From assembly GCA_963691905.1 (NCBI GenBank), contig OY829891.1:293795-357794 (forward strand): a stretch of DNA of 64,000 bases. Reading direction: 5' to 3'. The stretch comes from Sedimenticolaceae bacterium. Its GTDB lineage: Bacteria > Pseudomonadota > Gammaproteobacteria > Chromatiales > Chromatiaceae. The notes under the pieces were generated by a model that was given only the letters and a program-made list of their open reading frames with translations, ran no database searches and had not been told where the DNA came from. A program made the translations under genes and the position numbers. The stretch's first letter is position 1. Every line of letters begins with the position of its first letter. Of the stretch, positions 1,782-26,665 are shown in pieces.

Positions 1782-2015
1782 GCCTTAAACAATCAGGACA
1801 CCCCTAAACATCCCAAATGAAAACACTGATTCCCGGCGCACTGATGGAGATCAGCGAAACGGCCTTACTTGTTGCAGCGGCAGCAATAGGGTAGTTGGCA
1901 GGCCTGATCAAGCAAGCATATATGGACTGGACTGACACACTCAGATAACCTTATATTTCCTGTGGCGTTTCAGTGAGCCACCGGGCACAGAATCAGTCTT
2001 CGGGAGTGCATTAAC

Positions 2016-3716: not shown

Positions 3717-3976
3717 TTTCCGCTACAAGACAATGACTTCCCGGATTGTTCGAGGGACTCGTTACCCGAAAATTTAGCTGGAAAACCTTTTTTGTTCTAC
3801 ACTTATCAATAAAGTGGTTATTATAGCCTGCGCCTTGATTCGAAGATGAGTCAAACCTGTGTGGGAAGGGGATAAGAGGATTTACTGGACACCTCTGTGA
3901 ATTCTCGTTTGTGATCTTATTTCCATGCCAGCCTGACTGACAAAATCAGCGTCGGGTCGAAGGGAGGGCAGCGGAA

Positions 3977-6900
3977 ATGAAGTCCGGCAAACTGGTATGG
4001 ATCACTGATTTCAGTCACCTGTTTTCGTTTCGTTACCGATTAGGGCTGCCCTGGAAAAATCTCACTCCCTGTCTGTTATCTACCTTGCTGTTGATATTTA
4101 CCCCAACTGCTCTCTATGCAGCAGTGGGAGATACTACACGGGTCAGCGTGGACTCATCAGGGGCGGAAGCCAATGGTGAGAGTCCTAATCCCAGCATCTC
4201 CTCGGATGGGCGCTTTATTGCCTTTGAATCCGCTGCCAGCAATCTGGTGCCGAACGACAACAACAGCACCAACGATATCTTCGTCCATGATCGGGATAGC
4301 GGACAGACCACCCGAGTCAGTGTTGACTCCTCCGGGGTTGAAAGCAATGGCTGGAGTTTGTCTGCAGCTATCTCTGATGATGGCCGATATGTGACCTTTG
4401 ATTCGGCAGCCACCAATCTGCTCACCACCGATACCAATAACGCAAGAGACATCTTCGTCCATGACCGGACAACCGGCGTGACTACCCGGGTGAGCCTCGA
4501 CTCATCAGGAATTGAGGGGGGTTCTCACAGTATAACGCCAGCCATCTCATCAACAGGCCGGTTTGTCGCCTTTGCATCTTATGCCAGCAATCTTGTGCTG
4601 GATGATACCAACAGCAGAATCGATATCTTCGTCCATGACCGGGATACTGGAGAGACCACGCGCGTGAGCATGGATTCGTTCGGGGAACAGAGCAACAACA
4701 ACAGTAGCCTTCCTTCACTTTCTACAGATGGGCGTTACGTCGTCTTTGAGTCTGATGCCAGCAATCTGGTTCTGAATGATAGCAACAGTACCAGAGATGT
4801 CTTTGTCCATGACCGGGATACCGGAGAAACCACCCGGGTGAGCGTGAATTCGTCCGGGGCGGAGGGGGGTGACCTCAGTTCTTACCCAGCCATCTCCGGG
4901 GATGGTCGCTTTGTAACCTTTCAATCCCATGCCACCAATCTGGTCACAGGGGATACGAACGGCACTACGGATATTTTTGTGCATGACCGCGATACCCACG
5001 AGACCACCCGGGTGAGCGTGGATTCCTCCGGCACTCCGGCCAGCTTTTTGAGCTTTACCCCCGACATCTCCGCAGACGGTCGTTATGTCGCCTTTTCATC
5101 CATAGACCCTAACCTGGTGTCCGGGGATTTCAACGGTATGATGGATATTTTTGTGCATGACCGCGATACAGGCCAGACCTCCCTGGTGAGTGTCAGAGAC
5201 TCCGGTTCGCAAGGAGACGCCAGCAGCATCAACCCGGCCATATCCGCAGACGGGACGCATGTCGCCTTTGAATCCGAAGGCCGGATGGTGTTTGACGACT
5301 TCAATGGTGTGACCGATATCTTCGTCAACGAGTATATCGGTCCGATAGTGGTGCCCCCGCCCCCCACCGATGCCGACATGAGCGTGTCTCTTTCGGATGG
5401 CAGTGATCCTGTCGATGCAGGCTCGAATCTATCATTTTCTGTTACCGCCACCAATTCCGGGCCGGCGGACGCCACCAACGTAATGTTAAGCGTTGACCTG
5501 CCGGACAATGTGACTTTTATCAGCAGCCACGTTGTCTGCAGTGAATCTGCCAGTATCGTGAGTTGCGCCTTGGGTGACATAACATCCGGTGGCGGTAGCC
5601 AGGTCAGCATCCTGGTGACCGTCCCATTCACCGCGGGTCTCCTCACCACCACCGCCGAGGTGACGGCGGACCAGGTCGATTTGACAGCCGCCAATAACAG
5701 CGTCAGTGAAACCACTTCCGTTATCCTGCCGAACATCGAAATCATCGATTCCACTCTACCAATCGATGATCTGACGATCCTGTTCGGCACCCACCGGATC
5801 GGTGAGACTACCGATGAAATCGTCACCATCACCAACAACAGCCTCACCATGCCGGTCACCATCACCGTGATCGCCAACTCCCTGGAGGCGCCCTTTCAGG
5901 TGCTCGATCCGAACGGTTGTGACGGTGCCCCACTGGATGCCGGTTCCAGTTGCATCCTCACGGTGGAGTACGCCCCCACGATGACCGGCGATGCCAGCGA
6001 CACCTTGACCCTGGGGATCGGGGCGGACAGTGTGGATGTGGTCGTCAGAGGGACCGCTGTGGAGAACGCCGCCGATCTGGCGATCGGTAAGACCGCTGAT
6101 ATTCTCGTGGTCAGCCCGGGGGTCATAACCACCTTCACCCTCACGGTCACCAATCACGGACCGGATGCCGCCAGTGTGGTGGTCACCGATCAGCTGCCCG
6201 CCGGTATGGAGATTCCGGCAGGTATGTCGGCGGCAGCCAGTATCGGCAGCTACGATGAAACAACCGGCGAATGGAGTGTTGGCATATTGGATGTCACCCA
6301 GCCACCCGTGACGGAGACCCTGGAGATACCCGTTCAGGTGATCAGCGCTGAACACTGCATCACCAACACCGCGAGTGTCGCAATGGCGCCGGGTGAGACA
6401 TCTGTCGATACCAATAGCAGTAATAATAGTGACTCGGTAACCATCGGTACCTCAGACGGATGTGCGGATCTTTCGATGACAGGCGAAATAATCAATAACT
6501 TTTATTCGTCGAGCAGTGGAGGTGATTGCATCAATATAGTTGTTGAAGTCCGTGTCAGCAATCTGGGTCCCACAGCTGCTTCGGGCGTTATAATCCGGCA
6601 GAATCGTATTGTTTTCACAAGTAGCAGTAGCACTAAATACGAGTGTGAATCAGGTACAAGGCACGAACCAACGGTAGAGGAAGAGATCAATCTGGATAAC
6701 CTGGCTCCCGGTGAGTCCAAGACAGCCGTGCTTTTCTCTTATGAGGAAGCAGCATTCCCCGTGAAAGCAAGCATGAATCTCTCTCTCGATTATTCTGTGA
6801 CATCCGATAGTTTCGATTCCGATTTGAACAATAACCATTACATCGCGAGTAAATCATTTTCGAATACAGATACAACGATACAACTTGACGATCCGGGATG

Positions 6901-7264
6901 TTCTTTCTCACTTGCCACATCCGGAACACCGTTAACTCAGGGGTTGAATCTTCTGCGTCAGTTCCGCGACCAGATACTGATGCCCTATGCAGCGGGGCGC
7001 AGCTTGGTCAACATCTATTACGAGTTGAGTCCACCACTTGCCATGTTAATGACCAAGCACGAAAGCCTGAGGACCGTAATCCGTACACTATTGCGACCCG
7101 TTATCTGGTGGGCCGGTTTGACCCTCTCCTCACCCGTAGTCGGTTGGTTGCTGCTAATATGTCTCGGGATCGGAGTGCTATTTTCAATGGTCATAGTTGC
7201 GCGGCGTCTAAGTCGTATGATGATAGGGAAAAGTTCAATGCCCCTGGCTAAGAGACACATTTAA
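3977..7264 (+). CDS. Large secreted/anchored protein: ~9 PD40 (TolB-like beta-propeller) repeats, DUF11-type repeats, C-terminal anchor module
   Basis: 1095 aa with a signal-like N-terminus. It has ~57-aa tandem repeats of the form TTRVSVDSSG..SISSDGRF[IV]AFES.ASNLV..D.N...DIFVHDR. Segments such as 'NSGPADATNV' and 'NHGPDAASVV' look like DUF11. The C-terminus has LRQFRD..YYELSPPLA followed by a TM helix. Confidence 0.75.
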   Translation: MKSGKLVWITDFSHLFSFRYRLGLPWKNLTPCLLSTLLLIFTPTALYAAVGDTTRVSVDSSGAEANGESPNPSISSDGRFIAFESAASNLVPNDNNSTNDIFVHDRDSGQTTRVSVDSSGVESNGWSLSAAISDDGRYVTFDSAATNLLTTDTNNARDIFVHDRTTGVTTRVSLDSSGIEGGSHSITPAISSTGRFVAFASYASNLVLDDTNSRIDIFVHDRDTGETTRVSMDSFGEQSNNNSSLPSLSTDGRYVVFESDASNLVLNDSNSTRDVFVHDRDTGETTRVSVNSSGAEGGDLSSYPAISGDGRFVTFQSHATNLVTGDTNGTTDIFVHDRDTHETTRVSVDSSGTPASFLSFTPDISADGRYVAFSSIDPNLVSGDFNGMMDIFVHDRDTGQTSLVSVRDSGSQGDASSINPAISADGTHVAFESEGRMVFDDFNGVTDIFVNEYIGPIVVPPPPTDADMSVSLSDGSDPVDAGSNLSFSVTATNSGPADATNVMLSVDLPDNVTFISSHVVCSESASIVSCALGDITSGGGSQVSILVTVPFTAGLLTTTAEVTADQVDLTAANNSVSETTSVILPNIEIIDSTLPIDDLTILFGTHRIGETTDEIVTITNNSLTMPVTITVIANSLEAPFQVLDPNGCDGAPLDAGSSCILTVEYAPTMTGDASDTLTLGIGADSVDVVVRGTAVENAADLAIGKTADILVVSPGVITTFTLTVTNHGPDAASVVVTDQLPAGMEIPAGMSAAASIGSYDETTGEWSVGILDVTQPPVTETLEIPVQVISAEHCITNTASVAMAPGETSVDTNSSNNSDSVTIGTSDGCADLSMTGEIINNFYSSSSGGDCINIVVEVRVSNLGPTAASGVIIRQNRIVFTSSSSTKYECESGTRHEPTVEEEINLDNLAPGESKTAVLFSYEEAAFPVKASMNLSLDYSVTSDSFDSDLNNNHYIASKSFSNTDTTIQLDDPGCSFSLATSGTPLTQGLNLLRQFRDQILMPYAAGRSLVNIYYELSPPLAMLMTKHESLRTVIRTLLRPVIWWAGLTLSSPVVGWLLLICLGIGVLFSMVIVARRLSRMMIGKSSMPLAKRHI

Positions 7265-7392
7265 CATGTCTTCCCAGGCTGGCTGAAGCCATTGTCATTG
7301 CTTGGGCACAAATGGCGACGAGTGAAAATTGGACGACTGAAGGGGTCGGTAACGGCAACGACCCCGGATTGTTGCCGTTAAAGTGAAAAATA

Positions 7393-7809
7393 ATGAGCGC
7401 GAATACCTATAAAGGCAGTTGCCTTTGCGGCAAAGTCCGTTTTGAAATAACCGGCGAAATAGAGAACATCATCTATTGCCATTGCTCGCAGTGTCGAAAA
7501 GCACAAGGCAGCGCGTTTGCAACAAATGGGAATGTAGATGTAGAAGCGTTTGTTTTTATATCGGGCGAGGAAGAGTTAACGTGTTACCAATCGACTCCGG
7601 GACAAACAAAATATTTCTGCAAACACTGTGGTTCCCCAATCATCAGCAAAAAAGAATCCGTTCCGAACAAAGTACGGGTTCGTCTTGGAACCGTCGAATC
7701 AGATATACGCGAAAGGCCAATCGCGCATATTTTCGTCTCATCAAAAGCGAACTGGGAAACGTTGCCCGATGATTTACCTCAATACGAGTCCTATGAGCCA
7801 GACAGATAG
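7393..7809 (+). CDS. GFA family protein (glutathione-dependent formaldehyde-activating-like Zn-binding fold)
   Basis: 138 aa with the pattern CLCGKVRFE...YCHCSQCRKAQGSAF...CKHCGSP. Confidence 0.85.
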   Translation: MSANTYKGSCLCGKVRFEITGEIENIIYCHCSQCRKAQGSAFATNGNVDVEAFVFISGEEELTCYQSTPGQTKYFCKHCGSPIISKKESVPNKVRVRLGTVESDIRERPIAHIFVSSKANWETLPDDLPQYESYEPDR

Positions 7810-7886
7810 ATGCGCACCTAATCCGACCTAGGCTTATTCGGGCCTTCTCCAACACCCATTATTCACAGTTGAATTGCCGAACTGGC

Positions 7887-7918
7887 GTAGGCACGATCAA
7901 GCGCAGCGGATCGGGCAT
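7887..7918. repeat. REP unit GTAGGCACGATCAAGCGCAGCGGATCGGGCAT
   Basis: Near-identical (2 mismatches) to the reverse complement of 1749-1781. Confidence 0.6.
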
Positions 7919-7987
7919 TTTTGAATAAACAGAACATGGTGTAGTTGATGACTCTCCTGCTTCAGGCCTGTACCGTTTACCAAAGTT

Positions 7988-10900
7988 ATGAAATCATGGT
8001 CAAATCATCAGAACGAGATTCGGCTGACGAGTGACGCCAAACCAAGCAAAAGCACCCGCAACGACACCATGGAAAAAGAAGAAAAATCGATCATCCGCAT
8101 CTTCGTCGGCTCACCCGGTGATGTGGAAGAGGAGCGCAAGGCCGCCTTTGAGGTCATCGACCAGCTGAACAACCACCACTGGCGACCCCGCAACATTGCG
8201 GTAAAGGGTTACGGCTGGGACAATACCCACTACCCGAAACTGATCCCCAACTCACCACAGGCCGACATCGAAACCAGCCTGCCGAAGATGGCAGAGTACG
8301 ACATCTGCATCTTCATACTCTGCCATCGTCTGGGTACGCCGTTGGATGAGAGCTTTGCCCCCCTGGATGACGATGGCCGCCAGCCCACCGGTACCGAGTA
8401 CGAATTCTACAGTGCCCGGAATACAGAGACACCACCACAGATACTGCTATATCGGCGTGAAAAAGCGTTCTCTCTGCAACCCGATATGCCTCAAACTGAC
8501 CAAATAGAGGCTTTCGAACAATTCCAACTTGCGAATGCCTTCATCGAAAAAAACACCAAAGAAGGCAAAACCTTCACTGGCGACTACCACAAACACAAAA
8601 CAGACGACGACTTCAAAACACGCCTGGAGAAAGACCTCACTGCCCTGGTCAATCGACTGCTCAAGACACCCGCACAACCGGATAAACCCAAAACTGACCA
8701 ACCGGCGTCCATCCCCAGCAGCTACCTGAATTGGCTCAGACACAAAGCCAGCGATATCACTCTGCTCGGTCTCGACAACAAAGAGGCCCACAACGTCCGC
8801 CTGCCGCAAGTCTACGTCCCGGCAATCACCCCAACGCCCACAGAGGAAGGGGAAGAGAAAAAAGAACGCTGGGAAGTAGATCGAGAAGGCCATGATCTGT
8901 TACTGACGCGACTGAACCAGGACTCCCTCTACCTGCCGGGTGCGCCAGGCAGGGGCAAAACCACCTTCTGCAACTGGGTCTGTTGGGTTGTGGCCAGCAG
9001 TACCATCCCCGCCGACGACCACAAACTGGCCGCTGAATACCAAGAAGAACTACCGCAAGATCTGCTGGGCCGTCTGCCGGTCCTCTGCCGATTACGCGAA
9101 TTCTGGGGACACATGACATGCCGGAAGGACAACGGCGACTGGACCCGCACCCAACTTGAGACAGCCCTCTGCAACTGGCTCGACAAGAAAAAACCGGATG
9201 GTCTGACTTCAGCCCGCTTTCTGGAGCACCTGAAACGGGGTAACTGCCTGCTGATCATCGACGGCTTTGATGAAGTCCCGCCAAGCCGTGAGTACGATGG
9301 CCACATCGAATATCCCCGCGCCGCCCTGCTCTCAGGCCTGAAGAAGGCGCTGCCTCACTGGATCGAAGGCGGCAACCGCATCCTGCTCACCAGCCGCCCC
9401 TACGGTCTGAGTCCGGGTGAGCGTCAGGGACTGGGCCTTGCAGAGAGCGAACTCTCCGCCCTCACTGGCGGCCTGCAACGACTCTTCGTTCAACGCTGGT
9501 TCCATGCAGCAGACAGAGAGAAAGGGACAATAAAGGCCGACGGACTTCTGCAACAACTCGATGCCCGCCCCGACCTAAATGAGTTTCGTACCAACCCAAT
9601 GCTGCTGACCGCCCTCTGCGTGAAGTATGACGAAGGGAGCAGGCTGCCGAAAGATATCCACGATCTCTACAGTGCGGTGATAAACCAGGTACTACACAAC
9701 CGCTATCTTGACCGGGCGCATGAGGTGGCGAAGGTGCGGCGGCGACTGGGGGTCATCGCTTGGGAGATGCACAGCGGCGATCTGGCGGGTAAACAACGCA
9801 GCGTACCCGACGCGGAGATCCACGAAGAGGAGATCGAGGGGGTTTTGATAGACTATGCCCATTCCAAACCCCACGATGAGGGCGGTGAAGATGATGCCTC
9901 AGACAAGCGGGAAGACTTGCTCTCGCGCTCCGGTCTTTTACTGCCGACAGAAAACAATCAGGCGGAGTTCTATCACCTCAGCTTCCAGGATTTCCTCGCT
10001 GCAGAGCGTTTTGTCCGTTCTGGGCAATCGGTGGAGGATCTGGTCGCCTCCCATGCGGGCACATCCCAGTGGCGACAGACCCTGCTGTTTCTTTTCGCCC
10101 GGCTCACCAGCCGGGAGGATCTGGATACCGCCCTGGAGCGTTTCTCAGTACTGGGAGATTTTCTTGACCGGGATTCACTGCGCCAAAATCCACGCCCCGC
10201 CATTCTGTTGGGCGACTGTCTGGAGATCGCCCAGGCACGGGGAGAGATCGGCGAGTGGGGCATGGTCTATCGCCAGGCATGTTATACCGCACTGGAAGTG
10301 GTAAAGAGCCCGGAACATCGTGAAGCACTGTTTCGCGCCCTGGGAGCAGCCGGTCTTGATGATCGTCCAGGTGTGGGGCTGGATGAAAACGACCTGCCCG
10401 ATATCGCCTGGCAGGATATTCCGGCGGGTGAAGTTACCCTGTCCGGCAATGCGGGCAGTTTCCCGGTAGGGACCTTCCGCCTCTCCCGCTACCCCGTCAC
10501 CAACGCCCAGTTCCAGGCCTTTATCGATGATGACAAGGGGTATAAGAACCCTGAGTGGTGGGCAGACCTGGAGGTGGAACCGGGCAAACCTTTGTCCTCA
10601 CAGTGGAAGGAAGACAACCATCCCCGTGAAAGAGTCAGCTGGTATGAGGCAATGGCTTTCTGTGCCTGGCTATCCCACCGGCTGGGTTATCGGATGAGTC
10701 CACCGACAGAGTGGCAGTGGCAGCAGGCCGCCACCAGCGGCAATCCTGGGCAGGACTATCCGTGGGAAAAGGAGTACAAAAGTGGGCGGGCCAATATTGA
10801 TGAGACTTCTGGAGGTGCAGGTTCTCACTATCTGCGCCGAACCACGGCCGTGGGTATCTATCCTCAAGGTAATTCTGCGCAAAAGGTATCGGATCTTGCA

Positions 10901-11221
10901 GGAAACGTCTGGGAGTGGTGTCTGAATGAGCGTGATGAACCAGCAAATACACAGACCAGCGGTACGAAGCGGCGCGTGTTGCGCGGCGGGTCCTGGTTCT
11001 TCAATCTAGACAACGCCCGCGCGTCGATTCGCAACAACAACGAACCGGACAACCGTAACAACAATCTGGGTTTTCGGTTGAGTTGTTCGTCCCACATCGC
11101 CCCTGTTCTTCCTATTGCCGGTACTGCCTGCCGATCACGATTTGCAGGCCGAGGCGAAGAACGGATTGATGGCGCGGGATGGTCCCGTCCGCACTGTAAC
11201 AATACCGTCGGGCATATATAA
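7988..11221 (+). CDS. DUF4062 - NACHT (STAND NTPase) - FGE-sulfatase/C-type-lectin-fold protein; DGR target 1
   Basis: The N-terminus reads IRIFVGSPGDVEEER...TGTEYEFYSA (DUF4062-like). Walker A is GAPGRGKTT and Walker B is LLIIDGFDEVP (NACHT-like). The C-terminus reads RYPVTNAQFQAFI..HPRERVSWYEAMAFCAWL..GNVWEWC..RVLRGGSW...LGFRLSC (FGE/SUMF1-like). The likely true start is the ATG at 8069 (MEKEEKS). The last 48 codons after LSCSS look like read-through of non-coding DNA. Confidence 0.85.
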   Translation: MKSWSNHQNEIRLTSDAKPSKSTRNDTMEKEEKSIIRIFVGSPGDVEEERKAAFEVIDQLNNHHWRPRNIAVKGYGWDNTHYPKLIPNSPQADIETSLPKMAEYDICIFILCHRLGTPLDESFAPLDDDGRQPTGTEYEFYSARNTETPPQILLYRREKAFSLQPDMPQTDQIEAFEQFQLANAFIEKNTKEGKTFTGDYHKHKTDDDFKTRLEKDLTALVNRLLKTPAQPDKPKTDQPASIPSSYLNWLRHKASDITLLGLDNKEAHNVRLPQVYVPAITPTPTEEGEEKKERWEVDREGHDLLLTRLNQDSLYLPGAPGRGKTTFCNWVCWVVASSTIPADDHKLAAEYQEELPQDLLGRLPVLCRLREFWGHMTCRKDNGDWTRTQLETALCNWLDKKKPDGLTSARFLEHLKRGNCLLIIDGFDEVPPSREYDGHIEYPRAALLSGLKKALPHWIEGGNRILLTSRPYGLSPGERQGLGLAESELSALTGGLQRLFVQRWFHAADREKGTIKADGLLQQLDARPDLNEFRTNPMLLTALCVKYDEGSRLPKDIHDLYSAVINQVLHNRYLDRAHEVAKVRRRLGVIAWEMHSGDLAGKQRSVPDAEIHEEEIEGVLIDYAHSKPHDEGGEDDASDKREDLLSRSGLLLPTENNQAEFYHLSFQDFLAAERFVRSGQSVEDLVASHAGTSQWRQTLLFLFARLTSREDLDTALERFSVLGDFLDRDSLRQNPRPAILLGDCLEIAQARGEIGEWGMVYRQACYTALEVVKSPEHREALFRALGAAGLDDRPGVGLDENDLPDIAWQDIPAGEVTLSGNAGSFPVGTFRLSRYPVTNAQFQAFIDDDKGYKNPEWWADLEVEPGKPLSSQWKEDNHPRERVSWYEAMAFCAWLSHRLGYRMSPPTEWQWQQAATSGNPGQDYPWEKEYKSGRANIDETSGGAGSHYLRRTTAVGIYPQGNSAQKVSDLAGNVWEWCLNERDEPANTQTSGTKRRVLRGGSWFFNLDNARASIRNNNEPDNRNNNLGFRLSCSSHIAPVLPIAGTACRSRFAGRGEERIDGAGWSRPHCNNTVGHI
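10973..11093 (+). repeat. DGR repeat copy 1 (AAC-rich; VR of target 1 and/or TR-like)
   Basis: This 121-nt block matches the reverse complement of 12870-12990 at 108/121 positions. It encodes ...SWFFNLDNARASIRNNNEPDNRNNNLGFRLSCSS. Confidence 0.8.
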
Positions 11222-11260
11222 AAAAGGGGCGCTTCCCGGACACTGTTCCCGAAGCGCCCC
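11219..11260 (-). terminator. Rho-independent terminator of avd (U-run only on the minus strand)
   Basis: The stem is GGGGCGCTTC (11226-11235) paired with GAAGCGCCCC (11251-11260). An A6 run at 11220-11225 gives a T-run after the hairpin on the minus strand, just downstream of the avd stop at 11264. Confidence 0.7.
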
Positions 11261-11263
11261 GCC

Positions 11264-11617
11264 CTATCCATGATCCGTTCGGGCCTGCCGCAACCAGCCA
11301 CCTAATAGACGGCCGATCTCCGCCACCATCTCACTCACATGTTGATATTGCCCATGGCTCAGCCATTGCCATCTATGGATGAGTTTCAGATAGTTGCGAA
11401 GTCTTGACAGCGAAGCATCGGCGGATTGCAACGCCACCAATCGCTCACACCCCTGTTGTGCCTGTGCATCTCCCAAAGCCTCGTAAAGATCCAACCCCGA
11501 ATCCATAAGACGTTGTGTTACCGTGTGACGATAGACCCTTGGGAAACGCTCTGACTTTGGCAACAGCCAGTCGAGCAGGTCAAACACACGTACAAATATC
11601 ACCATCTCCTGTGTCAT
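11264..11617 (-). CDS. avd: DGR accessory variability determinant-like four-helix-bundle protein (Avd)
   Basis: 117 aa. The [25 protein letters not shown].. pattern fits the Avd / '23S rRNA IVS' four-helix-bundle family. A strong AGGAGG Shine-Dalgarno sequence lies 8 nt upstream of the ATG. The gene is adjacent to the DGR RT. Confidence 0.8.
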
Positions 11618-11621
11618 TCAG

Positions 11622-12698
11622 ATGTCCTCCTTTAGCACACTATTCAAACAAATCTGTGATTGGGAAAACCTGCTTATGGCCTACCGGAAGGCAGCCAGGG
11701 GCAAGCGCGGTCATCCCAACGTAGCGCAGTTTGATTTCAGACAGGCGGATGAGTTGCTAAGTCTTCGCAGCGAATTGCTTGCTGGAAATTACCGGCCCGG
11801 ACCTTATGTGAACTTCCATATTCACGAGCCCAAGCGGCGCAAAATCAGCGCCGCCCCTTTCCGCGACAGGGTAGTGCATCACGCACTATGTAATCTATTG
11901 GAACCCAGGTTCGAAAGACACTTCATTCCTGATAGTTACGCCAACCGGGTCGATAAGGGAACTCACCGGGCAGTGGATCGCTTGCAGGCATTCTCACAGC
12001 GTTTCCGCTACATACTGCGGGCGGACATCGTCAAACATTTCCCATCCATTGATCACACAGTTCTCAAGGAGATCCTGCATCGCCGAATTGAAGAGGATGA
12101 TGTCATGGTACTGGTTCGTACCATCATCGACAGTGGTGCCGGTGTGTTGGATGACGAATATGAGATGCAGTGGTTTCCGCAAGACGACCTGCTTGCTGCC
12201 TGCCGGCCGCGCGGCCTGCCCATCGGTAATCTGACATCACAGTTCTGGTCCAACTGCTACCTCGACCCTTTTGACCATTTCGTGAAACGTGAACTCGGCT
12301 GCAAAGCCTACCTGCGTTATGTTGATGACTTTGCCCTCTTCAGCAACAGCAAGGCAGAACTCTGGGCCTGGAAACGTGCAATCATCGAACGCCTGCAACG
12401 GTTTCGGCTGGTCATCCATGAATCTGCCGCTCAGGTTTTGCCGGTTGAGTGCGGAATTCCCTGGCTCGGCTTCGTGGTCTATCCGACTCACCGGCGCATC
12501 AAGGCACGTAAAGTACGTACTGCCACACGGCATTTAGCTGAACGGATGCAAGCCTGGAAACAGGGCAGGATCAGCTTCGCAGAACTTGACGCCTGCATTA
12601 ACGGCTGGGTCAACCATGTACGTTACGCTGACACCTGGGGACTACGCCGTTCTGTTTTCAACCGGCTTGCCACAAATGAGCGGGAAACCAAAATGTAG
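11622..12698 (+). CDS. DGR-type reverse transcriptase
   Basis: 358 aa with RT motifs: [34 protein letters not shown] (the DGR hallmark [ILV]GxxxSQ) and [12 protein letters not shown] (YxDD). Confidence 0.9.
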
Positions 12699-12762
12699 GA
12701 GCGGCGCCCTCGCCGCGATTTATCTATCTATGGAGTAATCGCGGCGGGGCGCCGCTCCTACA
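12694..12762. terminator. Long GC-rich palindrome (REP-like) between the convergent RT and target-2 genes
   Basis: TGTAGGAGCGGCGCCCTCGCCGCGATT-loop-AATCGCGGCGGGGCGCCGCTCCTACA forms a ~25-bp stem with one bulge. It overlaps the RT stop codon. It is a plausible bidirectional terminator. Confidence 0.6.
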
Positions 12763-12852
12763 GGTACCTTGCATGAAAATATTCGTCACCGCCGCTATCG
12801 CGGCAGATCAGTGAACAGAAAAGCAGTGATTCAGTGTTCAGAGCCACAGTGG

Positions 12853-15800
12853 TCAGTCTTTCTTGATGGGGGACGAACAACTCAACCGAAAACCCAGATT
12901 GTAGTAACGGGAGTCCGGTACGTTGTAGTAGCGAACCGACGCGCGGGCGTAGTCTTGATCGTAGAGCCAGGACCCGCCGCGCAACACGCGACTTTCCGTG
13001 CCGCTGGTTTGTGTATTGGCTGGATCGCCATACTCGTTCAGACACCATTCCCAGACGTTTCCTGCAAGATCTGACACCCCTTGCCCTGAGTTACCCTGGG
13101 GATAGATACCAACTGCCGTGGTTCGGCGCAGATAGTGAGAACCTGCACCTCTTACAGTCTCATCAATATTGGCCAGCCCTCTTTCGTACTCCGAACCCCA
13201 AGGGTAGTCCTGACCTGGATTGCCGCTCGATGCCGCCTGCTGCCACTGCCACTCAGTCGGCAGACTCACCGTGTATCCCAGCCGGTCGGAGAGCCAGGCG
13301 CAGAAGGCCATCGCCTCGTACCAGGAGACTGTCTCCCGAGGATGATTGGGTTCGCTCCAACTGGGCATTCCAGGTGTATCTGGCTTCTCATCCAGTTTCA
13401 CCCACCATTCGCGGTTTTGATATCCCTTGTCATCATCGATAAAGGTCTGGAACTGGGCGTTGGTAACCGGATAACTGGCCAGGTAAAAGTGTTCGACAGG
13501 GAAAGTACCTGCATCGTCCTCCAGGCTGACTTCATCGGCAGCGGGAATCTCACACCACTCAATATCAGGTAATCCATTTTTATCCAGCCCGACCCCGGGG
13601 CGTGGATCTCCGATGCCACCCAGCATCCTCCCCGCCTCGGTCCGTTCCTCGATTGTCAAAGCGGTGGAATCTTCGATGAGTTCGACAATGAGCCTGCGTA
13701 TCTTTTTACACTGACGGGGAAAGCCGGTGTCGTCCAGGCCAGTCAGCCCCAGTTCCATCAGGCTCAGGCCCGCCAATACCGAGACCTGGTGGCGGATGGT
13801 TTCGACCGCCTCTTCAGCAGTCTCCAGCATATCCTCGATGTAGCCGATGGCGGGGCGGGGTTTCTTGCGCTGCTCCAGAACCGCCAGCAGAAAGGTCTCC
13901 CGCCACCAGACCGGGTCGGTACAGACCTCGCGGCTCAGGGCGTCATCGGTGCGGGAACTGAGCCAGCCCATGGCCAGGTATTCCTGAAACGAGCGATGGG
14001 GAAAGGCATAGTGGTCCCTGCCACGGCTGATAAGGATACCGCTGTGCTGCTCCAGATAGGCCAGCAGGTCGTCCCTGCCCAATGTCGCCAGCAGGGGTTC
14101 AAAGACGTCCAGCAACTGGCTGCGGCTGATATTAGCGACACCGGTACTGTCGCGCTGCTCACGCTGGGTCTTGTGCGCCGACCAGGCAAGTCTCTGCAGG
14201 CATTCACGCAAGACCGGTTCCGGCAGGCTCAGGGGCTGACCATCGCAGTTTCGAAAACAGCGGTTGGCACGCCACTGGTAGAGCAGCAGGTTGACGCTGT
14301 CACGGTAGAGTTCAGCACGATCCTCCGGCAGGCTGCCGCCACTGGCGTGCAGGGTGGCGATGAGAGTCAGCAGCAGGGGACGACGGGCCAGTTCCCGCAG
14401 GTGTTCACGATTTTCGACCCGCTCCACCATATCAGGCACGCGAAGCTTCAAATCCTGTTCGCGCAGGCCGAATCGCTCTCTCGCCGCCCGATACCAGCCG
14501 TGGATGAACTGGCTTCGCTGTCCTTCATCAAATGGGGTGAGGAAGAGCGGGGTGAAACCGGACAGGCGCCAGCCGGGATCAGTGTATGCGTAGGGACGGG
14601 CGGTCAACATGAAACGGGTCGACGCCGGCAGCTCTTCCACCAGCGCACGAATCGCCTGCAACAGGTGAGTACGGCGCTCACCGGCGGCAGGTACCTCGTC
14701 GAGTCCGTCGAGCAGGATCATTCCCCCTGGGTTCTCGTTCAGTCGATGACGCAGGGCGCTCACCACTTGCGGGGCTTTTTTGCCCCTGCCTTGGGCGCTG
14801 CCTTCCAGCAGGTCACGGATATCCGCCTCCAGCGCCTGCCACAGCCACTTGGCACTTCCCACTTTGGCGTTGCCGGGGATCTCAACCTGCCGCAGGACGA
14901 TACGCACAGGAATCCTGCCCTGAAGTAGATCAGGCAGTTCGGCATCCGCCTTATTCGCAGACAACTGCCAGGCGAGCTGGTTGACCAGGGCCGACTTGCC
15001 TGCGCCAGGATCGCCGATCAACACCGCGTGGGATTCACGGGCCAACAGATCGAGAACCGGCACGGGTTCACCACTTTTGCCTTCGGTCATTTTGCGAATG
15101 TGGTCTGGAACCTCTTCGTCCTGCTCCAGCCACTTTTCCGGTGGAGCAACGGCCTTCAGAGGAACAAAGATATCCGGCAGGCGGATGGGGTCGGCTGGCT
15201 GTTCCAGACCCTGACGGGCGTCCAGCACCTCCAGGGGAAGCCGGGCGCAGTCGACGGCCTGGATGCGTAACCACTCTGCCAGGAGTTGGTCGTCCGGCGG
15301 CGGGTCGGGTGGGTCACCGGTGCCGTCGCCCTGCTGGTTCCAGGGCTTTTTCGGATCGTTGAGCCATTGATTGAGATCACGCGCCAGCAGCACGGGGAAG
15401 TCGTCAGTGGTTTCGAAATTTGCGGTGAAGAGTTGGTCTTCGCCTTCCTTGTTCAGGTGCGCTCTGAAAGCATCAACCTCTCGTTTCTGGTTTAGGATTC
15501 CGGCCAGTTCGTCGGTATCCGTGGGTGGTCCACCCTTTTCCCAACCGTTGCGGAAGAACCATTTGATCTCCGGGTAGTCGCCATGCGCCCGACGAATATT
15601 CATGGCGACAGTGAACTCCTCCTCGGTGCCTGAGTTGAAGTCACCAGTCGGTGTGCCAAAACGCTGCCCCAGCAGGCCAATAACCAGTGCAAGGGAAGGT
15701 CTGAATTTGATTAAGGTCTGTTGAGTGATCAGCGCTTGGGGACGACCAACGCCAATATCGGTCTGGTTTTCCCAGTCGATAAGATCGAACTGAAAACCCC

Positions 15801-15930
15801 TGGGATTGGCGGTATCCCGATTGTAGGCCTTGAAAAAATCACGCACCGCCTGGCGCTCTTCGGCCATATCGCCGGGTGAGGCGAGGAACACATGATAGAT
15901 CTTGCGATCAGCGGGTTTCGGCGACGACAT
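12853..15930 (-). CDS. DUF4062 - NACHT (STAND NTPase) - FGE-sulfatase/C-type-lectin-fold protein; DGR target 2
   Basis: 1025 aa. The N-terminus reads KIYHVFLASPGDMAEER...SGTEEEFTVA. Walker A is GDPGAGKS and Walker B is MILLDGLDEVP. The C-terminal FGE-like domain is collinear with target 1 and ends ...SWLYDQDYARASVRYYNVPDSRYYNLGFRLSCSSPIKKD. Confidence 0.85.
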   Translation of the reverse strand: MSSPKPADRKIYHVFLASPGDMAEERQAVRDFFKAYNRDTANPRGFQFDLIDWENQTDIGVGRPQALITQQTLIKFRPSLALVIGLLGQRFGTPTGDFNSGTEEEFTVAMNIRRAHGDYPEIKWFFRNGWEKGGPPTDTDELAGILNQKREVDAFRAHLNKEGEDQLFTANFETTDDFPVLLARDLNQWLNDPKKPWNQQGDGTGDPPDPPPDDQLLAEWLRIQAVDCARLPLEVLDARQGLEQPADPIRLPDIFVPLKAVAPPEKWLEQDEEVPDHIRKMTEGKSGEPVPVLDLLARESHAVLIGDPGAGKSALVNQLAWQLSANKADAELPDLLQGRIPVRIVLRQVEIPGNAKVGSAKWLWQALEADIRDLLEGSAQGRGKKAPQVVSALRHRLNENPGGMILLDGLDEVPAAGERRTHLLQAIRALVEELPASTRFMLTARPYAYTDPGWRLSGFTPLFLTPFDEGQRSQFIHGWYRAARERFGLREQDLKLRVPDMVERVENREHLRELARRPLLLTLIATLHASGGSLPEDRAELYRDSVNLLLYQWRANRCFRNCDGQPLSLPEPVLRECLQRLAWSAHKTQREQRDSTGVANISRSQLLDVFEPLLATLGRDDLLAYLEQHSGILISRGRDHYAFPHRSFQEYLAMGWLSSRTDDALSREVCTDPVWWRETFLLAVLEQRKKPRPAIGYIEDMLETAEEAVETIRHQVSVLAGLSLMELGLTGLDDTGFPRQCKKIRRLIVELIEDSTALTIEERTEAGRMLGGIGDPRPGVGLDKNGLPDIEWCEIPAADEVSLEDDAGTFPVEHFYLASYPVTNAQFQTFIDDDKGYQNREWWVKLDEKPDTPGMPSWSEPNHPRETVSWYEAMAFCAWLSDRLGYTVSLPTEWQWQQAASSGNPGQDYPWGSEYERGLANIDETVRGAGSHYLRRTTAVGIYPQGNSGQGVSDLAGNVWEWCLNEYGDPANTQTSGTESRVLRGGSWLYDQDYARASVRYYNVPDSRYYNLGFRLSCSSPIKKD
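12870..12990 (-). repeat. DGR variable repeat (VR) of target 2
   Basis: This is the 121-nt partner of 10973-11093. TAC/TCC/GAT/GTT/GTA codons occur where copy 1 has AAC/AAT/ATT/GAA. Confidence 0.85.
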
Positions 15931-16012
15931 GTTCTTCCCTGATTACAACAGTGGAATATAACCTACGGATCTTTTGTTGGAAATTCAATTCCGTACATCT
16001 CAGGATCATCAG

Positions 16013-16094
16013 CATCTCGACCACGGGAAGGGGTCTCCTGCTTGCATCCCGTTGGCAGCAATGTAGCACGAGATCTCTCCCCACGGTCGAGATG
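16013..16094 (-). other. Conserved structured intergenic element, copy A (18-bp stem hairpin on the minus-strand transcript)
   Basis: On the minus strand, CATCTCGACCGTGGGGAG...CTTCCCGTGGTCGAGATG pairs over 18 bp with G-U wobbles. It lies between the DUF4157-A stop and the target-2 start. The same element is at 18445-18526 with a compensatory pair change. Confidence 0.5.
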
Positions 16095-16141
16095 ACAAAT
16101 GATCAGGGATATCGCAGGTAATGCGGAATCAGACAACCCCA

Positions 16142-18019
16142 TCAAGGCCCGGCCGCCGCACCGACCAGACCCAGCACACTCTCGCCGGAGAGACCATCGA
16201 GCGCGGTTTGAGTGCCTCTAGCGTAGTTTGGATGCGCATCAATGGCATTTTCAAGATTAGTGGTAATATTCGCCTCGCTCATCGCCAGCGCTGCCGCGAC
16301 ATTCGCTTCTGAAACGGAGGGATCCTGCACGATAATTCGGCTGCATATGTCCCGATAATGCGCAGTATTACCCTTTGCCGCCAAGACCATTGCCCATTGC
16401 AGCAGAGCGCTGGTGGCTGATCTTCTGTAACCGCGAATGGCCGCAGGTTGTTCTGCAGCCGGGAGCGCCAAGATCTCATCCATTATATATCGCATCTGGC
16501 TGGTATAGGCCCGTGCCTCGAGTTCAAGCACACGGCGTTGTGTGATACCTGCACTCGCGGCGTCATCGGCGGCGTGGGTCAATTCATGGATGACCAGTGC
16601 TCGCGAATCAATCGCCGCAACGTCCAGATTGGTCGGCAGATAGAGCGTATCCCCTTTTTCCTGGTCTCTCCTGCCTATCGGTGAGTAGAAGGCACCGGCG
16701 CCATTACCTGATGTCAAACTCCGGAAGGCACGGGGGATCAGGGCATCGATCTTTATCTGACCACTCCTGATCTGTCCTGCGGTAGAGTGACCTGCTGTCC
16801 GGGCGATGACATAGACGATCCCGGCCATTACTTTATCCCCCGAACTACTGTCGGATGCCGCATTCAACATCGCACCCAATACTTCAAGGGAGGGAATGCT
16901 GTGTGTTTCCATATAGGCAATCAATGCAGTCGCCTGTCTCTGGAACTGCGGACCGGCGTGTCGAAGAATCTCTGTGGTTGCCGCCGCATCAGCCTCAGCC
17001 AATAAGACCATTCCACGTTCAAGATCAACACCCAATGTCGTGATGGCTGTCCACAACTGCAGAATGAGAGCATCCGGTATCTGCTCCCGTCCGATATTTC
17101 GCACACGTTCACGGTTGGCCGCAGTGATGGTGTTGATTACGATACTCAGCGTCCCGGTTCCGTGCGCCTGAAGCAATGGGACATTGACCGGATTGAGCAT
17201 CGACGCCATCAAGAGCCGTTCCGCATGGGTAACCGTACCGCGAACCTGCAACGCGTAGATACGCAGTGCATTGAGCTCGTTATCCGTCAGGGCGCCATCA
17301 CCGACAAAACGTTTTATGCGTCTGAAGAAGCCCGCCGTGATACCGCTGCCGACCCGGAACAGATAGTTACCGGTAGGCACGTTTGCCGCATCGAGCTCAA
17401 TCTCCCGCTGGACTATGGAAAACCGTTGTAGGCCTCCAGCGCCACGATTCTGTTGCACCACATGAGTCAACTCATGGGCCAGCAGGTGTTTTCCGGTTTT
17501 CGTCTCGGGATTGTACTTTCCTGAGTTGAAATAGATGTCTTTCCCGTGGGTAAACGCCTGGGCACCGACAGCCCGGTTCAGGCTGGCGGATTCACTGTCT
17601 GTGTGTAGCCGCACATCACTGAAATCGAAACCCAGCGACTGCGACATCTCCCTATGGGTTGGTGTTGGCAGTCTACTGCCGCTTCCCTTGGTGGATTGCA
17701 ATCTGGCAGCCATGCCGACTGGCGCGGAGGGTACAGCTGGCCGGTGACCGGCCCGTCGTTGAATGGCGAAGAAGCCCTGCTGTTGCGGGGATAAAGCGTG
17801 TTCAGAACGCTGGACAACTGCAGTGGCGACGCTGTCGGCTTCCTTCTCATACTGATCGCCGGGCTGTCCGATCGTCAGCTTTGTCTGAAAGAACGCGCCC
17901 TGCTGAGACCTCTGCCCCGATGCCTTGCCGGTATGGGAGAAAAAAGGTTGCTCCTGCCTGTCAATCGCTTGGATTCCACGCCGCCTGCGTGGACGATACG
18001 CTCTAATGTCCCTGTTCAT
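16142..18019 (-). CDS. DUF4157 (zincin-like) domain protein, paralog A
   Basis: 625 aa. The N-terminal layout is typical of DUF4157: FFQTKLTIGQPGDQYEKEAD...FGFDFSDVRLHTD...AFTHGKDIYF...LLAHELTHVVQQ. A second HExxH (VIHELTHAADD) lies in the C-terminal half. Confidence 0.8.
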   Translation of the reverse strand: MNRDIRAYRPRRRRGIQAIDRQEQPFFSHTGKASGQRSQQGAFFQTKLTIGQPGDQYEKEADSVATAVVQRSEHALSPQQQGFFAIQRRAGHRPAVPSAPVGMAARLQSTKGSGSRLPTPTHREMSQSLGFDFSDVRLHTDSESASLNRAVGAQAFTHGKDIYFNSGKYNPETKTGKHLLAHELTHVVQQNRGAGGLQRFSIVQREIELDAANVPTGNYLFRVGSGITAGFFRRIKRFVGDGALTDNELNALRIYALQVRGTVTHAERLLMASMLNPVNVPLLQAHGTGTLSIVINTITAANRERVRNIGREQIPDALILQLWTAITTLGVDLERGMVLLAEADAAATTEILRHAGPQFQRQATALIAYMETHSIPSLEVLGAMLNAASDSSSGDKVMAGIVYVIARTAGHSTAGQIRSGQIKIDALIPRAFRSLTSGNGAGAFYSPIGRRDQEKGDTLYLPTNLDVAAIDSRALVIHELTHAADDAASAGITQRRVLELEARAYTSQMRYIMDEILALPAAEQPAAIRGYRRSATSALLQWAMVLAAKGNTAHYRDICSRIIVQDPSVSEANVAAALAMSEANITTNLENAIDAHPNYARGTQTALDGLSGESVLGLVGAAAGP

Positions 18020-18139: not shown

Positions 18140-18361
18140 CGAGGGCGAGGAGAGTTTGGGGTCAGTTCCTGGGGGCGGCCGACACCGATGGTGGAGTGGT
18201 TTTCCCAATCGATGAGATCGAACTGAAGCCCCTGGGATTAGCGGCATCCCGATTGCAGGCCTTGAAAAATCATGCACCGCCTGGCGCTCTTCAGCCATGT
18301 CGCCGGGTGAGGCGAGGAACACATGATAGATCTTGCGATCAGCGGATTTCGGCGACAACAT
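18140..18361 (-). pseudogene. 5' fragment of a DUF4062-NACHT gene (frameshifted and truncated)
   Basis: The first 31 codons (MLSPKSADRKIYHVFLASPGDMAEERQAVHDF) parallel the target-2 N-terminus. Nucleotide homology then continues in another frame (..FDLIDWENHSTIGVGRP). It ends at about 18140, where the duplication junction lies. Confidence 0.8.
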
Positions 18362-18444
18362 GGTTCATCCCTGGCTACAACGGTGGAATATAACCTACGG
18401 ATCTTTTGTTGGAAATTCAATTCCGTACATCTCAGGATCATCGG

Positions 18445-18526
18445 CATCTCGACCGCAGGAAGGGGTCTCCTGCTTGTATCCCGTTGGCAGCAATGTAGCA
18501 TGAGATCTCTCCCTACGGTCGAGATG
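18445..18526 (-). other. Conserved structured intergenic element, copy B
   Basis: The hairpin is the same 82 nt as 16013-16094. A G-C pair in copy A is replaced by A-U, and a G-U pair by G-C. Confidence 0.5.
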
Positions 18527-18573
18527 ACAAATGATCAGGGATATCGCAGGTAATGCGGAATCAGACAACCCCA

Positions 18574-20451
18574 TCAAGGCCCAGCCGCATCACCGACCAA
18601 ATCCAGCACACTCTCACCGGAGAGGCCATCGAGCGCCACGAAGGTACCTCTGGTGTAGTTAGGAAGTTCCGCAATGGCGTCTTCGAGTCTTGTGGTGATA
18701 TCCGCAACACTCAACGCCAAAGCAGCCATAACATTCGCTTCCGATACGGTGGGATCCTGTAGCAGGATACGCGTGCAAATCTCCTGATAACGCGCAGTAT
18801 CCCCTTTTGTCGCCGATATGAGTGCCCATTGAACCCATTCGCTGGCGGCCGATAGCCTGTACTCACGGATGACCGCTGGTTGCCCGGCTGCCGGGAGTGC
18901 CAGGATCTCATCCATCGTGTATTGCAACTGGCGGGTACGAGCCCGAGCCTCGAACTCAAGCACCCGCTGGTGAGTGATGCCCCCGGATGCTGCGTCATCG
19001 GCAGCGTGAGTCAGCTCATGGATGACCAGTGACCGCGAGTCGATAGACGCAACGTTCAGACTGGTCGGCAGATAGAGCGTATCTCCCTTTGCCTCATCGG
19101 TCCTGCCTACTGATGAATAGAACGCAGCAGAACCGTCACCTGAGGTGATACGCCGGTAGGCACGGGGTATAAGCGCATCGACCTTTATTTGACCGCTTCT
19201 GATCTGCCCCGCAGTGGCGTGGCCTGCCTTCCTGGCGATGACATAGACGATCCCGGCCATCACCTTATCGCCGGAACTGCTGTCGGAGGCCGCATTCAAC
19301 ATCGCACCCAATACCTCCAGGGCGGGAATAGTGTGCATCTGCATGTAGGCAATCAGTGCAGTCGCCTGTGTTTGGAATTGTGGACCGGCGTGCTGCAGGA
19401 TCTCTCTGGTTGCCGCCGCATCGACCTCTGCCAATAACGCCAGTCCACGTTCAAGATCGACGCCCAATGTGGTAACGGCATCCCATAACTGCAGCATGAG
19501 GGCATCCGGTATCTGTTCGCGTCCTATATCGCGAGCATGCTGACGGTTGGCATCGGTGATCGTGTTGATCGGAATGGAGAGGGCACCCGTCCCATGAGCC
19601 TGAAGCAATGGAACATTGACAGCGTTGAGCATCGCCGCCATCAAGAGCCGCTCAGCGTTGTTGACTGAACCTCTGACCCGTAGTGCATAGATACGCAGTG
19701 CATTGAGTTCATTATCCGTCAGCGCGCCATCACCGACAAAACGTTTTATACGCGTGAAGAAGCCTGCAGTGATACCGCTGCCAACCCGAAACAGATAGTT
19801 ACCGGTAGGCACATTTGCCGCATCGAGCTCAATCTCCCGCTGGATCATTGAAGTCCGTTGCAGGCCTCCAGCGCCACGATTCTGTTGCACCACATGAGTC
19901 AACTCATGGGCCAGCAGGTGTTTTCCGGTTTTCGTCTCGGGATTGTACTTTCCCGAGTTGAAGTAGATGTCTTTCCCGTGGGTAAACGCCTGGGCACCGA
20001 CAGCCCTGTTCAAGTTGACGGATTCACTGTCTGTGTGTAGCCGCACATCACTGAAGTCGAAACCCAGCGACTGCGACATCTCCGTGTGGGTTCGTTTTGG
20101 CAGTCTACTGCCGCTTCCCTTGGAGGATTGCAATCTGGCAGCCATACCGGCGGGAGCAGAAGGTGCGACTGCCCGGTGACTCGCCCGACGTTGAATGGTG
20201 AAGAAACCCTGCTGTTGCTGTGATGAAGCGTGTCCAGAACGCTGAACAACTGCGGTGGCGACGTTGTCGGCTTCCTTCTCATACTGATCGCCGGGCTGTC
20301 CGATCGTCAGCTTTGTCTGAAAGAACGCACCCTGCTGAGACCTCTGCCCCGATGCCTTGCCGGTATGGGAGAAAAACGGTTGCTCCTGCCTGTCAATCGC
20401 TTGGATTCCACGCCGCCTGCGTGGACGATACGCTCTAATGTCCCTGTTCAT
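18574..20451 (-). CDS. DUF4157 (zincin-like) domain protein, paralog B
   Basis: 625 aa and collinear with paralog A. The first 62 residues are identical, and divergence rises toward the C-terminus. Both HELTHVVQQ and HELTHAADD are retained. Confidence 0.8.
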   Translation of the reverse strand: MNRDIRAYRPRRRRGIQAIDRQEQPFFSHTGKASGQRSQQGAFFQTKLTIGQPGDQYEKEADNVATAVVQRSGHASSQQQQGFFTIQRRASHRAVAPSAPAGMAARLQSSKGSGSRLPKRTHTEMSQSLGFDFSDVRLHTDSESVNLNRAVGAQAFTHGKDIYFNSGKYNPETKTGKHLLAHELTHVVQQNRGAGGLQRTSMIQREIELDAANVPTGNYLFRVGSGITAGFFTRIKRFVGDGALTDNELNALRIYALRVRGSVNNAERLLMAAMLNAVNVPLLQAHGTGALSIPINTITDANRQHARDIGREQIPDALMLQLWDAVTTLGVDLERGLALLAEVDAAATREILQHAGPQFQTQATALIAYMQMHTIPALEVLGAMLNAASDSSSGDKVMAGIVYVIARKAGHATAGQIRSGQIKVDALIPRAYRRITSGDGSAAFYSSVGRTDEAKGDTLYLPTSLNVASIDSRSLVIHELTHAADDAASGGITHQRVLEFEARARTRQLQYTMDEILALPAAGQPAVIREYRLSAASEWVQWALISATKGDTARYQEICTRILLQDPTVSEANVMAALALSVADITTRLEDAIAELPNYTRGTFVALDGLSGESVLDLVGDAAGP

Positions 20452-21671: not shown

Positions 21672-21730
21672 GTAGGGTGCGCCGTGCGCGCCATGATTGC
21701 TGCTTGTTCTGGTGCGCACGGCGCACCCTG
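21672..21730. repeat. REP unit GTAGGGTGCGC...GCGCACCCT
   Basis: This is a palindromic unit. A related copy lies at 30904-30963. Confidence 0.6.
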
Positions 21731-23109: not shown

Positions 23110-23132
23110 TCATAAATTTTTACAACACGCTC

Positions 23133-26627: not shown

Positions 26628-26665
26628 TATCTTCAGGTGCGCACGGCACACCCTACCAGACTGAT

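Follow-up and report, generated by a model that had tools for sequence, protein, structure and literature searches.

A 64-kb stretch of contig OY829891.1 from a Sedimenticolaceae tubeworm symbiont (the window, throughout) contains the genes of a diversity-generating retroelement (DGR), namely a reverse transcriptase (RT), the accessory gene avd and two target genes, and it raises the question of where the template repeat (TR) lies from which the variable repeats (VRs) of the targets were written. Only two copies of the repeat occur, one at the 3' end of each target, and the copy in target 1 (copy 1) is substituted at adenines only near its 5' end. Our analysis indicates that copy 1 is probably a fusion of the VR of target 1 (VR1) with the TR, formed by loss of about 306 nt between these direct repeats, and that the element was most likely disabled by it, recently. 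The genes of the element are as follows:

7988 to 11221, plus strand: target gene 1, from the list of open reading frames (ORFs); 1077 aa; Pfam NACHT (9.7e-8) and FGE-sulfatase (8.5e-40)
11264 to 11617, minus strand: avd (accessory variability determinant); 117 aa, intact; Pfam bAvd PF22296 (7.7e-18)
11622 to 12698, plus strand: DGR RT; 358 aa, intact; Pfam RVT_1
12853 to 15930, minus strand: target gene 2; 1025 aa, intact; DUF4062, NACHT and FGE-sulfatase (1.6e-42)

Target 1 is a NACHT/STAND NTPase with a C-terminal FGE-sulfatase/C-type-lectin-like domain, and in both targets the repeat sits at the C-terminal end of the FGE-sulfatase domain; the two FGE domains together form a long inverted repeat, 72-83% identical, of which 10973-11098 and 12990-12865 make up the final 126 nt. 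The RT retains all invariant columns of a 23-sequence alignment, including the YVDD motif, and has thousands of homologues at E<1e-30, with a bAvd-like neighbor at every locus read far enough upstream and TR/VR pairs at most of those read. Its nearest homologues belong to a Lamellibrachia anaximandri endosymbiont (P0001, 92%) and a Sedimenticola sp. (P0002, 84%), and a query with the RT against viral contigs gave no match; the avd protein has identical or near-identical counterparts in L. anaximandri symbionts. The locus accordingly presents a DGR-type RT, an adjacent Avd, adenine-only TR/VR differences and a VR at the C-terminus of an FGE fold. What the window does not hold is a free-standing TR with its own upstream and downstream RNA scaffold, the TR being fused in frame to target 1 instead. 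We regard the element as a recently crippled (or mis-assembled) DGR of a known clade with a conserved layout.

Two-part composition of the target 1 repeat

The repeat copies resolve into three segments:

10973 to 11008, plus strand: VR1-derived 5' part of the hybrid repeat, with target 1 coding flank upstream and 4 adenines substituted
11009 to 11098, plus strand: TR-derived 3' part of the hybrid repeat, with 24/24 adenines intact and the TR-type end CCCACATC
12865 to 12990, minus strand: VR2, a true variable repeat in the 3' end of target 2, with 13/31 template adenines substituted and the VR-type end CCCCCATC

A preliminary description of this DNA had reported two repeat copies only, and our searches bore this out: copy 1 lies at 10973-11098 (plus strand) and VR2 at 12865-12990 (minus strand), while a search allowing 3 mismatches and a whole-window repeat search recovered no third copy in the 64 kb, including the 4 nt between avd and RT and the interval 12699-12852. 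Ungapped alignment also reproduced every mismatch listed there between the two copies (copy 1/VR2). Four fall in the 5' part (10997 T/C, 11001 T/A, 11003 A/G and 11007 T/A); in the 3' part, copy 1 has A and VR2 a different base at 11012, 11027, 11033, 11036, 11043, 11051-52, 11057 and 11060, followed by A/C at 11094, after which the homology extends through CATC (11098) and then diverges. All 10 differences between VR2 and the segment 11009-11098 thus fall at copy 1 adenines. Against the VR1-derived part, by comparison, VR2 differs at three positions where copy 1 has T, as expected for two VRs that were mutagenised independently.

The adenine pattern separates the two parts of copy 1 more sharply still. 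Adenine counts were made with the TR of close relatives as reference (31 adenines), these relatives comprising three metagenome-assembled genomes of L. anaximandri symbionts (loci L001, L005 and L008/9, where L001 is GCA_016756955.1, contig JAESPB010000020.1), the Escarpia spicata symbiont (L006) and Sedimenticola sp. (L002/L007). Up to 11008, copy 1 carries substitutions at 4 of 7 adenines, its codons reading TTC TTC AAT CTA where the TR has ATC AAC AAT CAA; beyond that point, none of 24 is substituted. It had been claimed earlier that copy 1 deviates only in its first four variable codons and keeps 22 adenines intact, which agrees with these counts since 22 of the 24 precede 11094. Such a pattern, already called improbable for a VR that has undergone homing, is indeed foreign to the six true VRs, which are substituted at 10-16 of the same 24 adenines (the five VRs of relatives at 15-22/31 overall), and the rough site-frequency probability of finding zero 3' substitutions in a real VR is ~6e-11. 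Site 11012 is substituted in 6/6 true VRs. Together with the TR-type 3' flank, the probability of ~6e-11 leads us to reject the reading of copy 1 as an ordinary unmutated VR.

The two kinds of repeat are also distinguished by their ends. All TRs read ...TGG ATC AAC AAT CAA GAC AAC... and end in CCCACATCGCCCCTGTTCTTCC..., whereas all VRs end in C(C/T)CCATC and then run to a stop codon. Position 11094 had been described as A in copy 1 and C in VR2, followed by a shared CATC, which is correct; its reading as a distinction between initiation of mutagenic homing (IMH) elements of the IMH*/IMH kind is not upheld. The base is A in all TRs, and among VRs it is C in eight occurrences and T in one, so that it behaves as an ordinary mutagenised adenine rather than as a fixed marker. 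Two lineage-specific bases other than A, 11020 C and 11029 T, are common to copy 1 and VR2, which identifies the 3' part of copy 1 as the TR from which VR2 was written.

Orthologous loci and the missing interval

The origin of this hybrid becomes apparent from the orthologous loci, a comparison that the preliminary description had proposed. In the close relatives, VR1 is followed by a stop codon, a spacer of ~170 nt and a separate TR, which stands on the RT strand 306-308 nt past VR1. On the contigs of P0001 and P0002, gene finders annotate this TR as an ORF of 69 or 149 aa with a 'weak FGE-sulfatase' match, and next come the probable terminator hairpin of avd, then avd (-), RT (+) and target 2 (-). 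With BLAST, window 7097-11098 aligns to target 1/VR1 of L001 and window 10970-12719 to its TR-avd-RT segment, the two alignments overlapping in the repeat only; the 306-308 nt present between VR1 and TR in L001 and L006 are missing from the window. The flank 5' of copy 1 matches target 1 of the relatives and not the sequence upstream of their TR. The order target 1/VR1 (+), TR (+), avd (-), RT (+), VR2/target 2 (-) is common to every relative examined, and a free-standing TR is also found in nine more distant elements (L010, L011, L013-L017, L033 and L042), with VR1 (+), 150-340 nt, TR (+), about 230 nt, avd (-), RT (+) and VR2 (-). This distant set comprises seven metagenome loci with RTs 64-72% identical, one element recovered in seven independent assemblies (L033-L040), and L042/L043. 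The window is the only fused case among the loci examined. Since a separate TR stands in the orthologous loci, and since copy 1 joins the 5' side of target 1 to the TR 3' flank, we interpret it as a VR1/TR deletion fusion; the origin by VR1-TR recombination or deletion that had been hypothesized earlier is supported by the orthologous TR and by the flank alignments.

Downstream of the repeat, the TR side is preserved at its normal TR position, copy 1 carrying 160 nt of TR 3' flank. The end of copy 1 lies 523-529 nt from the RT start, in keeping with the ~530 nt given earlier and with the 526 nt between the L001 TR end and its RT. Two features occupy this side:

11099 to 11225, plus strand: retained 3' domain of the DGR RNA, equivalent to the 'spacer'; identity to the L001 and L006 TR flanks 91-95%
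11226 to 11260, no strand assigned: GC-rich hairpin where the ends of the TR RNA domain and of avd converge, with compensatory pairs in relatives

Within the 3' domain, a 9-bp stem closed by a CACG loop (11126-11149) comes first; a long-range duplex has its 3' strand here (CGGGATGGTCCC, 11175-11186), and a stem-loop (11187-11213) then leads to an A-rich tail (11214-11225). Conservation of the domain, with compensatory changes, extends over 9 loci. Rfam gave no match for the TR flank and, elsewhere, only spurious miRNA-like matches to a palindrome at ~12676-12779. The GC-rich hairpin has a U-run on the minus strand only, as had been stated, and from its sequence is probably the avd terminator. 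Within the stem-loop just past the duplex strand, we also observed a window-specific change, 11195 G->T, that breaks a G-C pair kept in 8/8 other aligned sequences; as a sign of inactivation, such a single substitution would be weak.

The fusion also accounts for the unusual C-terminus of target 1. Its reading frame passes the LSCSS motif and continues for 42 more codons plus a stop through non-coding TR flank (the 48 codons counted earlier are corrected by translation), whereas orthologues are 1010-1015 aa long and stop 5-6 codons past LSCSS; target 2 stops 5 codons past it, as described. The frame of this tail is not conserved, and L001 has a 1-nt indel there.

Five items can be recognized in the interval that is lost. 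The first is the stop codon of target 1, and the second is a hairpin with a GATA loop, ~55 nt past the VR, which follows both VR1 and VR2 in relatives and shows a compensatory stem change in L002. It is absent downstream of copy 1, where the TR-type end and flank stand instead, and its only exact copy in the window belongs to target 2:

12789 to 12806, minus strand: GATA-loop hairpin, candidate target-recognition element, ~55 nt downstream of VR2

By analogy with the hairpin downstream of the VR in the Bordetella phage DGR, it is a candidate for the element by which targets may be recognized. Third, the interval contains a sigma-70-like TTGATT-18-CATAAT (L001 7277-7306); matches to TTGnnn-17/18-CATA(A/C)T recur in L002, L006, L010, L016, L033 and L042, at consensus level only. 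The fourth item is a hairpin of 4-6 bp with a three- or four-base loop (the tetraloop hairpin), present in 9/11 loci, and the fifth, directly past it, is a GGGG...CC(C/T)G strand that forms the 5' strand of the long-range duplex. Its partner is C(G/A)GG...GUCC(C/U) in the TR 3' domain, giving 11 bp with one bulged base and compensatory changes such as CCCG/CGGG, CCTG/CAGG and CATCCG/CGGATG. As duplex energy alone gives no separation from background in GC-rich DNA, the pairing was evaluated with a partner-swap permutation test, in which native partners averaged -22.8 kcal/mol against -18.5 +/- 1.25 for swapped ones, with 9/20000 permutations as good. The upstream duplex motif is absent from the entire window, and no convincing surrogate strand was found upstream of copy 1, the best being an interrupted pairing of -18.0 kcal/mol against a background of -15.1 +/- 3.8.

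We propose that unequal recombination or replication slippage between the direct repeats VR1 and TR would have removed ~306 bp, with the crossover just past the fourth variable codon, most likely at 11008-11011. Formation of the fusion by retrohoming was also considered and appears ruled out, as TR cDNA, judged from the BPP-1 mechanism, would come without the TR 3' flank, while the flank here is contiguous with avd. In the fused product, target 1 no longer has a stop codon of its own, a VR-type 3' end or the GATA-loop hairpin, and the TR keeps its 3' RNA domain while having lost the promoter-like site, the 5' tetraloop hairpin, the 5' duplex strand and four template adenines. By analogy with the Bordetella phage DGR, the chimera would lack, on its 5' side, features required of a template and, on its 3' side, features required of a target.

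Activity of the element and alternative explanations

Whether the fused element could still function is best judged against the Bordetella phage BPP-1 DGR (mtd-avd-TR-brt), the experimentally defined prototype. There, the TR must be flanked by RNA on either side for cDNA to be made, and reverse transcription fails altogether when the upstream strand is deleted (Handa et al., bioRxiv 10.1101/2023.10.23.563531). Processivity comes from the noncoding segment downstream of the TR, to which Avd binds. Handa et al. also describe an avd:Sp duplex of 11 bp, one base of which is unpaired, with a short stem-loop and adenosines coming next, and they predict comparable duplexes and 9-bp tetraloop stems right after the TR in 207/278 DGRs (bioRxiv 10.1101/2023.10.23.563531). 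On the target side, homing is efficient only with a VR-proximal IMH and a hairpin/cruciform downstream, and sequence upstream of the VR can be dispensed with (Guo et al. 2011, PMC3240598). If these requirements hold here, the chimeric RNA would be unable to support cDNA synthesis and both VRs would now be frozen. With avd, RT and both target ORFs intact, any inactivation must be recent; the earlier suggestion of a fossil fits better than an active element only in this sense of a very recent disabling, its genes still being intact.

The preliminary description had instead favored copy 1 as the working template and VR2 as the active recipient. Under this explanation the deletion is real, the 3' end of the target 1 mRNA doubles as template RNA, and RT-Avd copies it to diversify VR2. 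The full TR 3' RNA domain, 91-95% identical to that of relatives, the intact RT and avd, and the position of copy 1 on the RT strand at the canonical distance are all compatible with it, and read-through from target 1 could supply the transcript, as no plus-strand U-run follows the hairpin at 11226-11260. However, the 5' duplex strand, the 5' hairpin and the promoter-like site are gone, no convincing surrogate strand replaces the one without which cDNA synthesis is abolished in BPP-1, and the change at 11195 breaks a conserved pair. VR2 itself provides a further argument: its first variable codons, CTC TAC GAT CAA, fit the ancestral ATC AAC AAT CAA but conflict with the chimeric TTC TTC AAT CTA at three positions where the template has T. 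A full-length rewriting of VR2 from the chimera has therefore not taken place, and at least its 5' part pre-dates the fusion. We consider a working hybrid improbable, and that the fusion is both real and active, with a translated target mRNA serving as template without the upstream clamp, slightly less probable still. Were it true, one gene would be at once a frozen former target and the diversity donor for its paralogue, with the template translated.

A second explanation places an intact TR elsewhere in the genome, serving VR2 in trans, with copy 1 as debris. Trans-acting TRs and incomplete loci have been described in Thiohalocapsa PB-PSB1 (PMC10907252), and the repeat search spanned 64 kb out of a contig that measures at least 406 kb. 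Against it, the native TR is still in place as the 3' part of copy 1 and shares 11020 C and 11029 T with VR2, so that a TR elsewhere, an option also raised earlier, is not needed; moreover, in the three species-representative genomes holding the repeat, a genome-wide scan with an invariant 27-mer found copies at the DGR locus only. We regard this explanation as very improbable.

A more serious concern is that the fusion arose during assembly, the true sequence being VR1-stop-spacer-TR and the assembler having jumped from VR1 to TR within the shared repeat, dropping ~306 bp. Direct repeats that are separated by ~306 nt and share identical stretches of 24 and 31-36 nt are a classic substrate for collapse, all genes are intact with no other decay, the fused 1077-aa protein occurs in one assembly only, and VR2 was clearly not written from the chimera. 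On the other hand, 0/17 other VR1+TR contigs of related elements are collapsed; seven independent short-read assemblies of one element are among these 17. The switch also falls past 11007, in the variable core, where VR1/TR identity normally spans a few bases; given that 11012 is substituted in 6/6 VRs, a k-mer path switch at this point needs an unusually TR-like VR1. Finally, real deletions are frequent at this locus in sister lineages. We consider a real deletion quite likely overall, and an artefact unlikely, though far from negligible.

The sister lineages document this decay directly. The E. spicata symbiont (L006) keeps VR1 and TR but has a Y1-transposase element in place of avd, RT and target 2; target 1 is all that remains in OY726078.1 and a Logan contig (L004/L030), beside the same element. 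The closest relative found, the L. barhami symbiont (L029, GCA_011947365.2; ~95% DNA identity), is syntenic over window 1920-10533, past which it carries PKD-domain genes, with target 1 cut to 851 aa and the whole DGR core absent. In the L. satsuma symbiont (L031), no RT is present at the locus. Complete or partial loss in L004/L030, L006, L029 and L031 indicates that real structural decay is common here.

The Y1-transposase (PF01797) element is flanked by 'GGGGTCAGAGTAAAAACTC' repeats (L006 6287-7140; L004 9050-10120; L030 3384-4109) and sits directly past the TR 3' domain in L006 and directly past the VR1 flank in OY726078.1 and the Logan contig.

Several points weigh against a real and disabling deletion. 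The undecayed RT, avd and targets would fit an artefact or a working element equally well, and the restriction of the fused 1077-aa protein to one assembly leaves room for collapse by the assembler. The need for the upstream RNA strand has been demonstrated in the Bordetella phage only, and here is deduced from conservation and covariation; the promoter calls are consensus matches only; and the TR search covered 64 kb of a ~406-kb contig. Having weighed these points, we still favor loss of ~306 nt between VR1 and TR, with recent disablement of the element, as the probable history of the locus.

Surrounding features, comparison with known DGRs and implications

Apart from the fusion, the surroundings of the element show several features of their own. 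The avd and RT starts (11617-11622) are divergent and 4 nt apart, a clade-wide trait, and each promoter must for this reason sit within the coding sequence of the other gene; a promoter-like TTGCCA-17-GATAGT lies on the plus strand within antisense avd (11366-11394) and is matched at the same place in L001. Between the RT stop and the VR2-side hairpin, a long, near-perfect GC-rich palindrome (12695-12761) may be a bidirectional terminator or a repetitive extragenic palindromic (REP)-like element. Just upstream of the DGR, 3977-7264 encodes a secreted-looking protein of 1095 aa with six 174-nt tandem units, conserved in relatives, whose orthologue has PD40/CLIPPER-like repeat units.

Beyond target 2, a tandem duplication with a 2432-nt period (15729-16511 vs 18162-18943) is associated with two 625-aa eCIS_core (DUF4157) genes (ORFs 16142-18019 and 18574-20451). 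At 18265-18362, the repeat further contains the first ~100 nt of target 2 and sequence just upstream of its start, in a copy of 95% identity, suggesting that a past duplication took in the start of a DUF4062 gene. Further along, 43216-49345 holds 7-8 dispersed or tandem copies of a 31-121-nt repeat with the core GGGGTCGGAGTCGnTTCAACTAC; their irregular spacing is unlike that of a CRISPR array, and the family may be a miniature inverted-repeat transposable element (MITE). REP-like palindromic repeats (GTAGGGTGCGCCGTGCGCGC... and TGTAGGTCGGGTTAGCG...) are located at 21672-21729, 26632-26661 and 30906-30963, and at 23034-23120 and 40112-40198, with one copy also in L029 and L006.

Among known systems, the L001-type DGR is the closest counterpart, with the same flanking genes, two NACHT-FGE targets, antisense avd/RT starts a few nt apart, an RT of 92% identity, a TR equal to the 3' part of copy 1 except at the two lineage-specific bases, and the same TR 3' flank and terminal hairpin. 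It differs in that its TR is free-standing 306 nt past VR1, with a promoter-like site, 5' hairpin and 5' duplex strand, and in that its target 1 ends 5-6 codons past LSCSS and is followed by the GATA-loop hairpin; none of these is retained at target 1 in the window. With BPP-1, the element shares adenine-specific TR-to-VR differences, an Avd and RT pair, a VR at the 3' end of a C-type-lectin-fold domain, a hairpin downstream of the VR, an 11-bp clamp with one unpaired base and a 9-bp tetraloop stem after the TR. Unlike in BPP-1, avd lies on the opposite strand between TR and RT, two targets converge, the VR hairpin stands ~55 nt past the VR rather than immediately after it with no BPP-1-like GC-rich IMH evident, and the upstream half of the RNA scaffold is deleted in the window. 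Thiohalocapsa PB-PSB1 (Dore et al. 2024, PMC10907252) likewise carries chromosomal DGRs that diversify STAND/NACHT-type putative sensors with FGE-type lectin domains, and at some of its loci key parts such as the RT and the TR are missing or have been replaced by mobile elements, comparable to the decay in the sister lineages here. Its losses arose by MITE or transposon insertion, with targets servable in trans, whereas the window shows a clean repeat-to-repeat deletion between VR1 and TR. A limited literature search turned up no description of a fused VR and TR, nor any of DGRs from tubeworm symbionts.

The avd-antisense DGR clade thus shares the BPP-1-type upstream:downstream 11-bp clamp, here with natural compensatory changes. 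If the fusion proved to be an assembly artefact, it would serve as a warning for automated DGR annotation of draft genomes. If the deletion is real, the locus would be a clean natural example of DGR death, one that would be counted as complete in RT-based DGR surveys, and it adds to the signs that this DGR has decayed repeatedly and independently among the symbionts of siboglinid tubeworms. The design of these DGRs places near-identical direct repeats a few hundred bases apart, so that one deletion can strip the template scaffold and the target signals together while leaving the genes intact.

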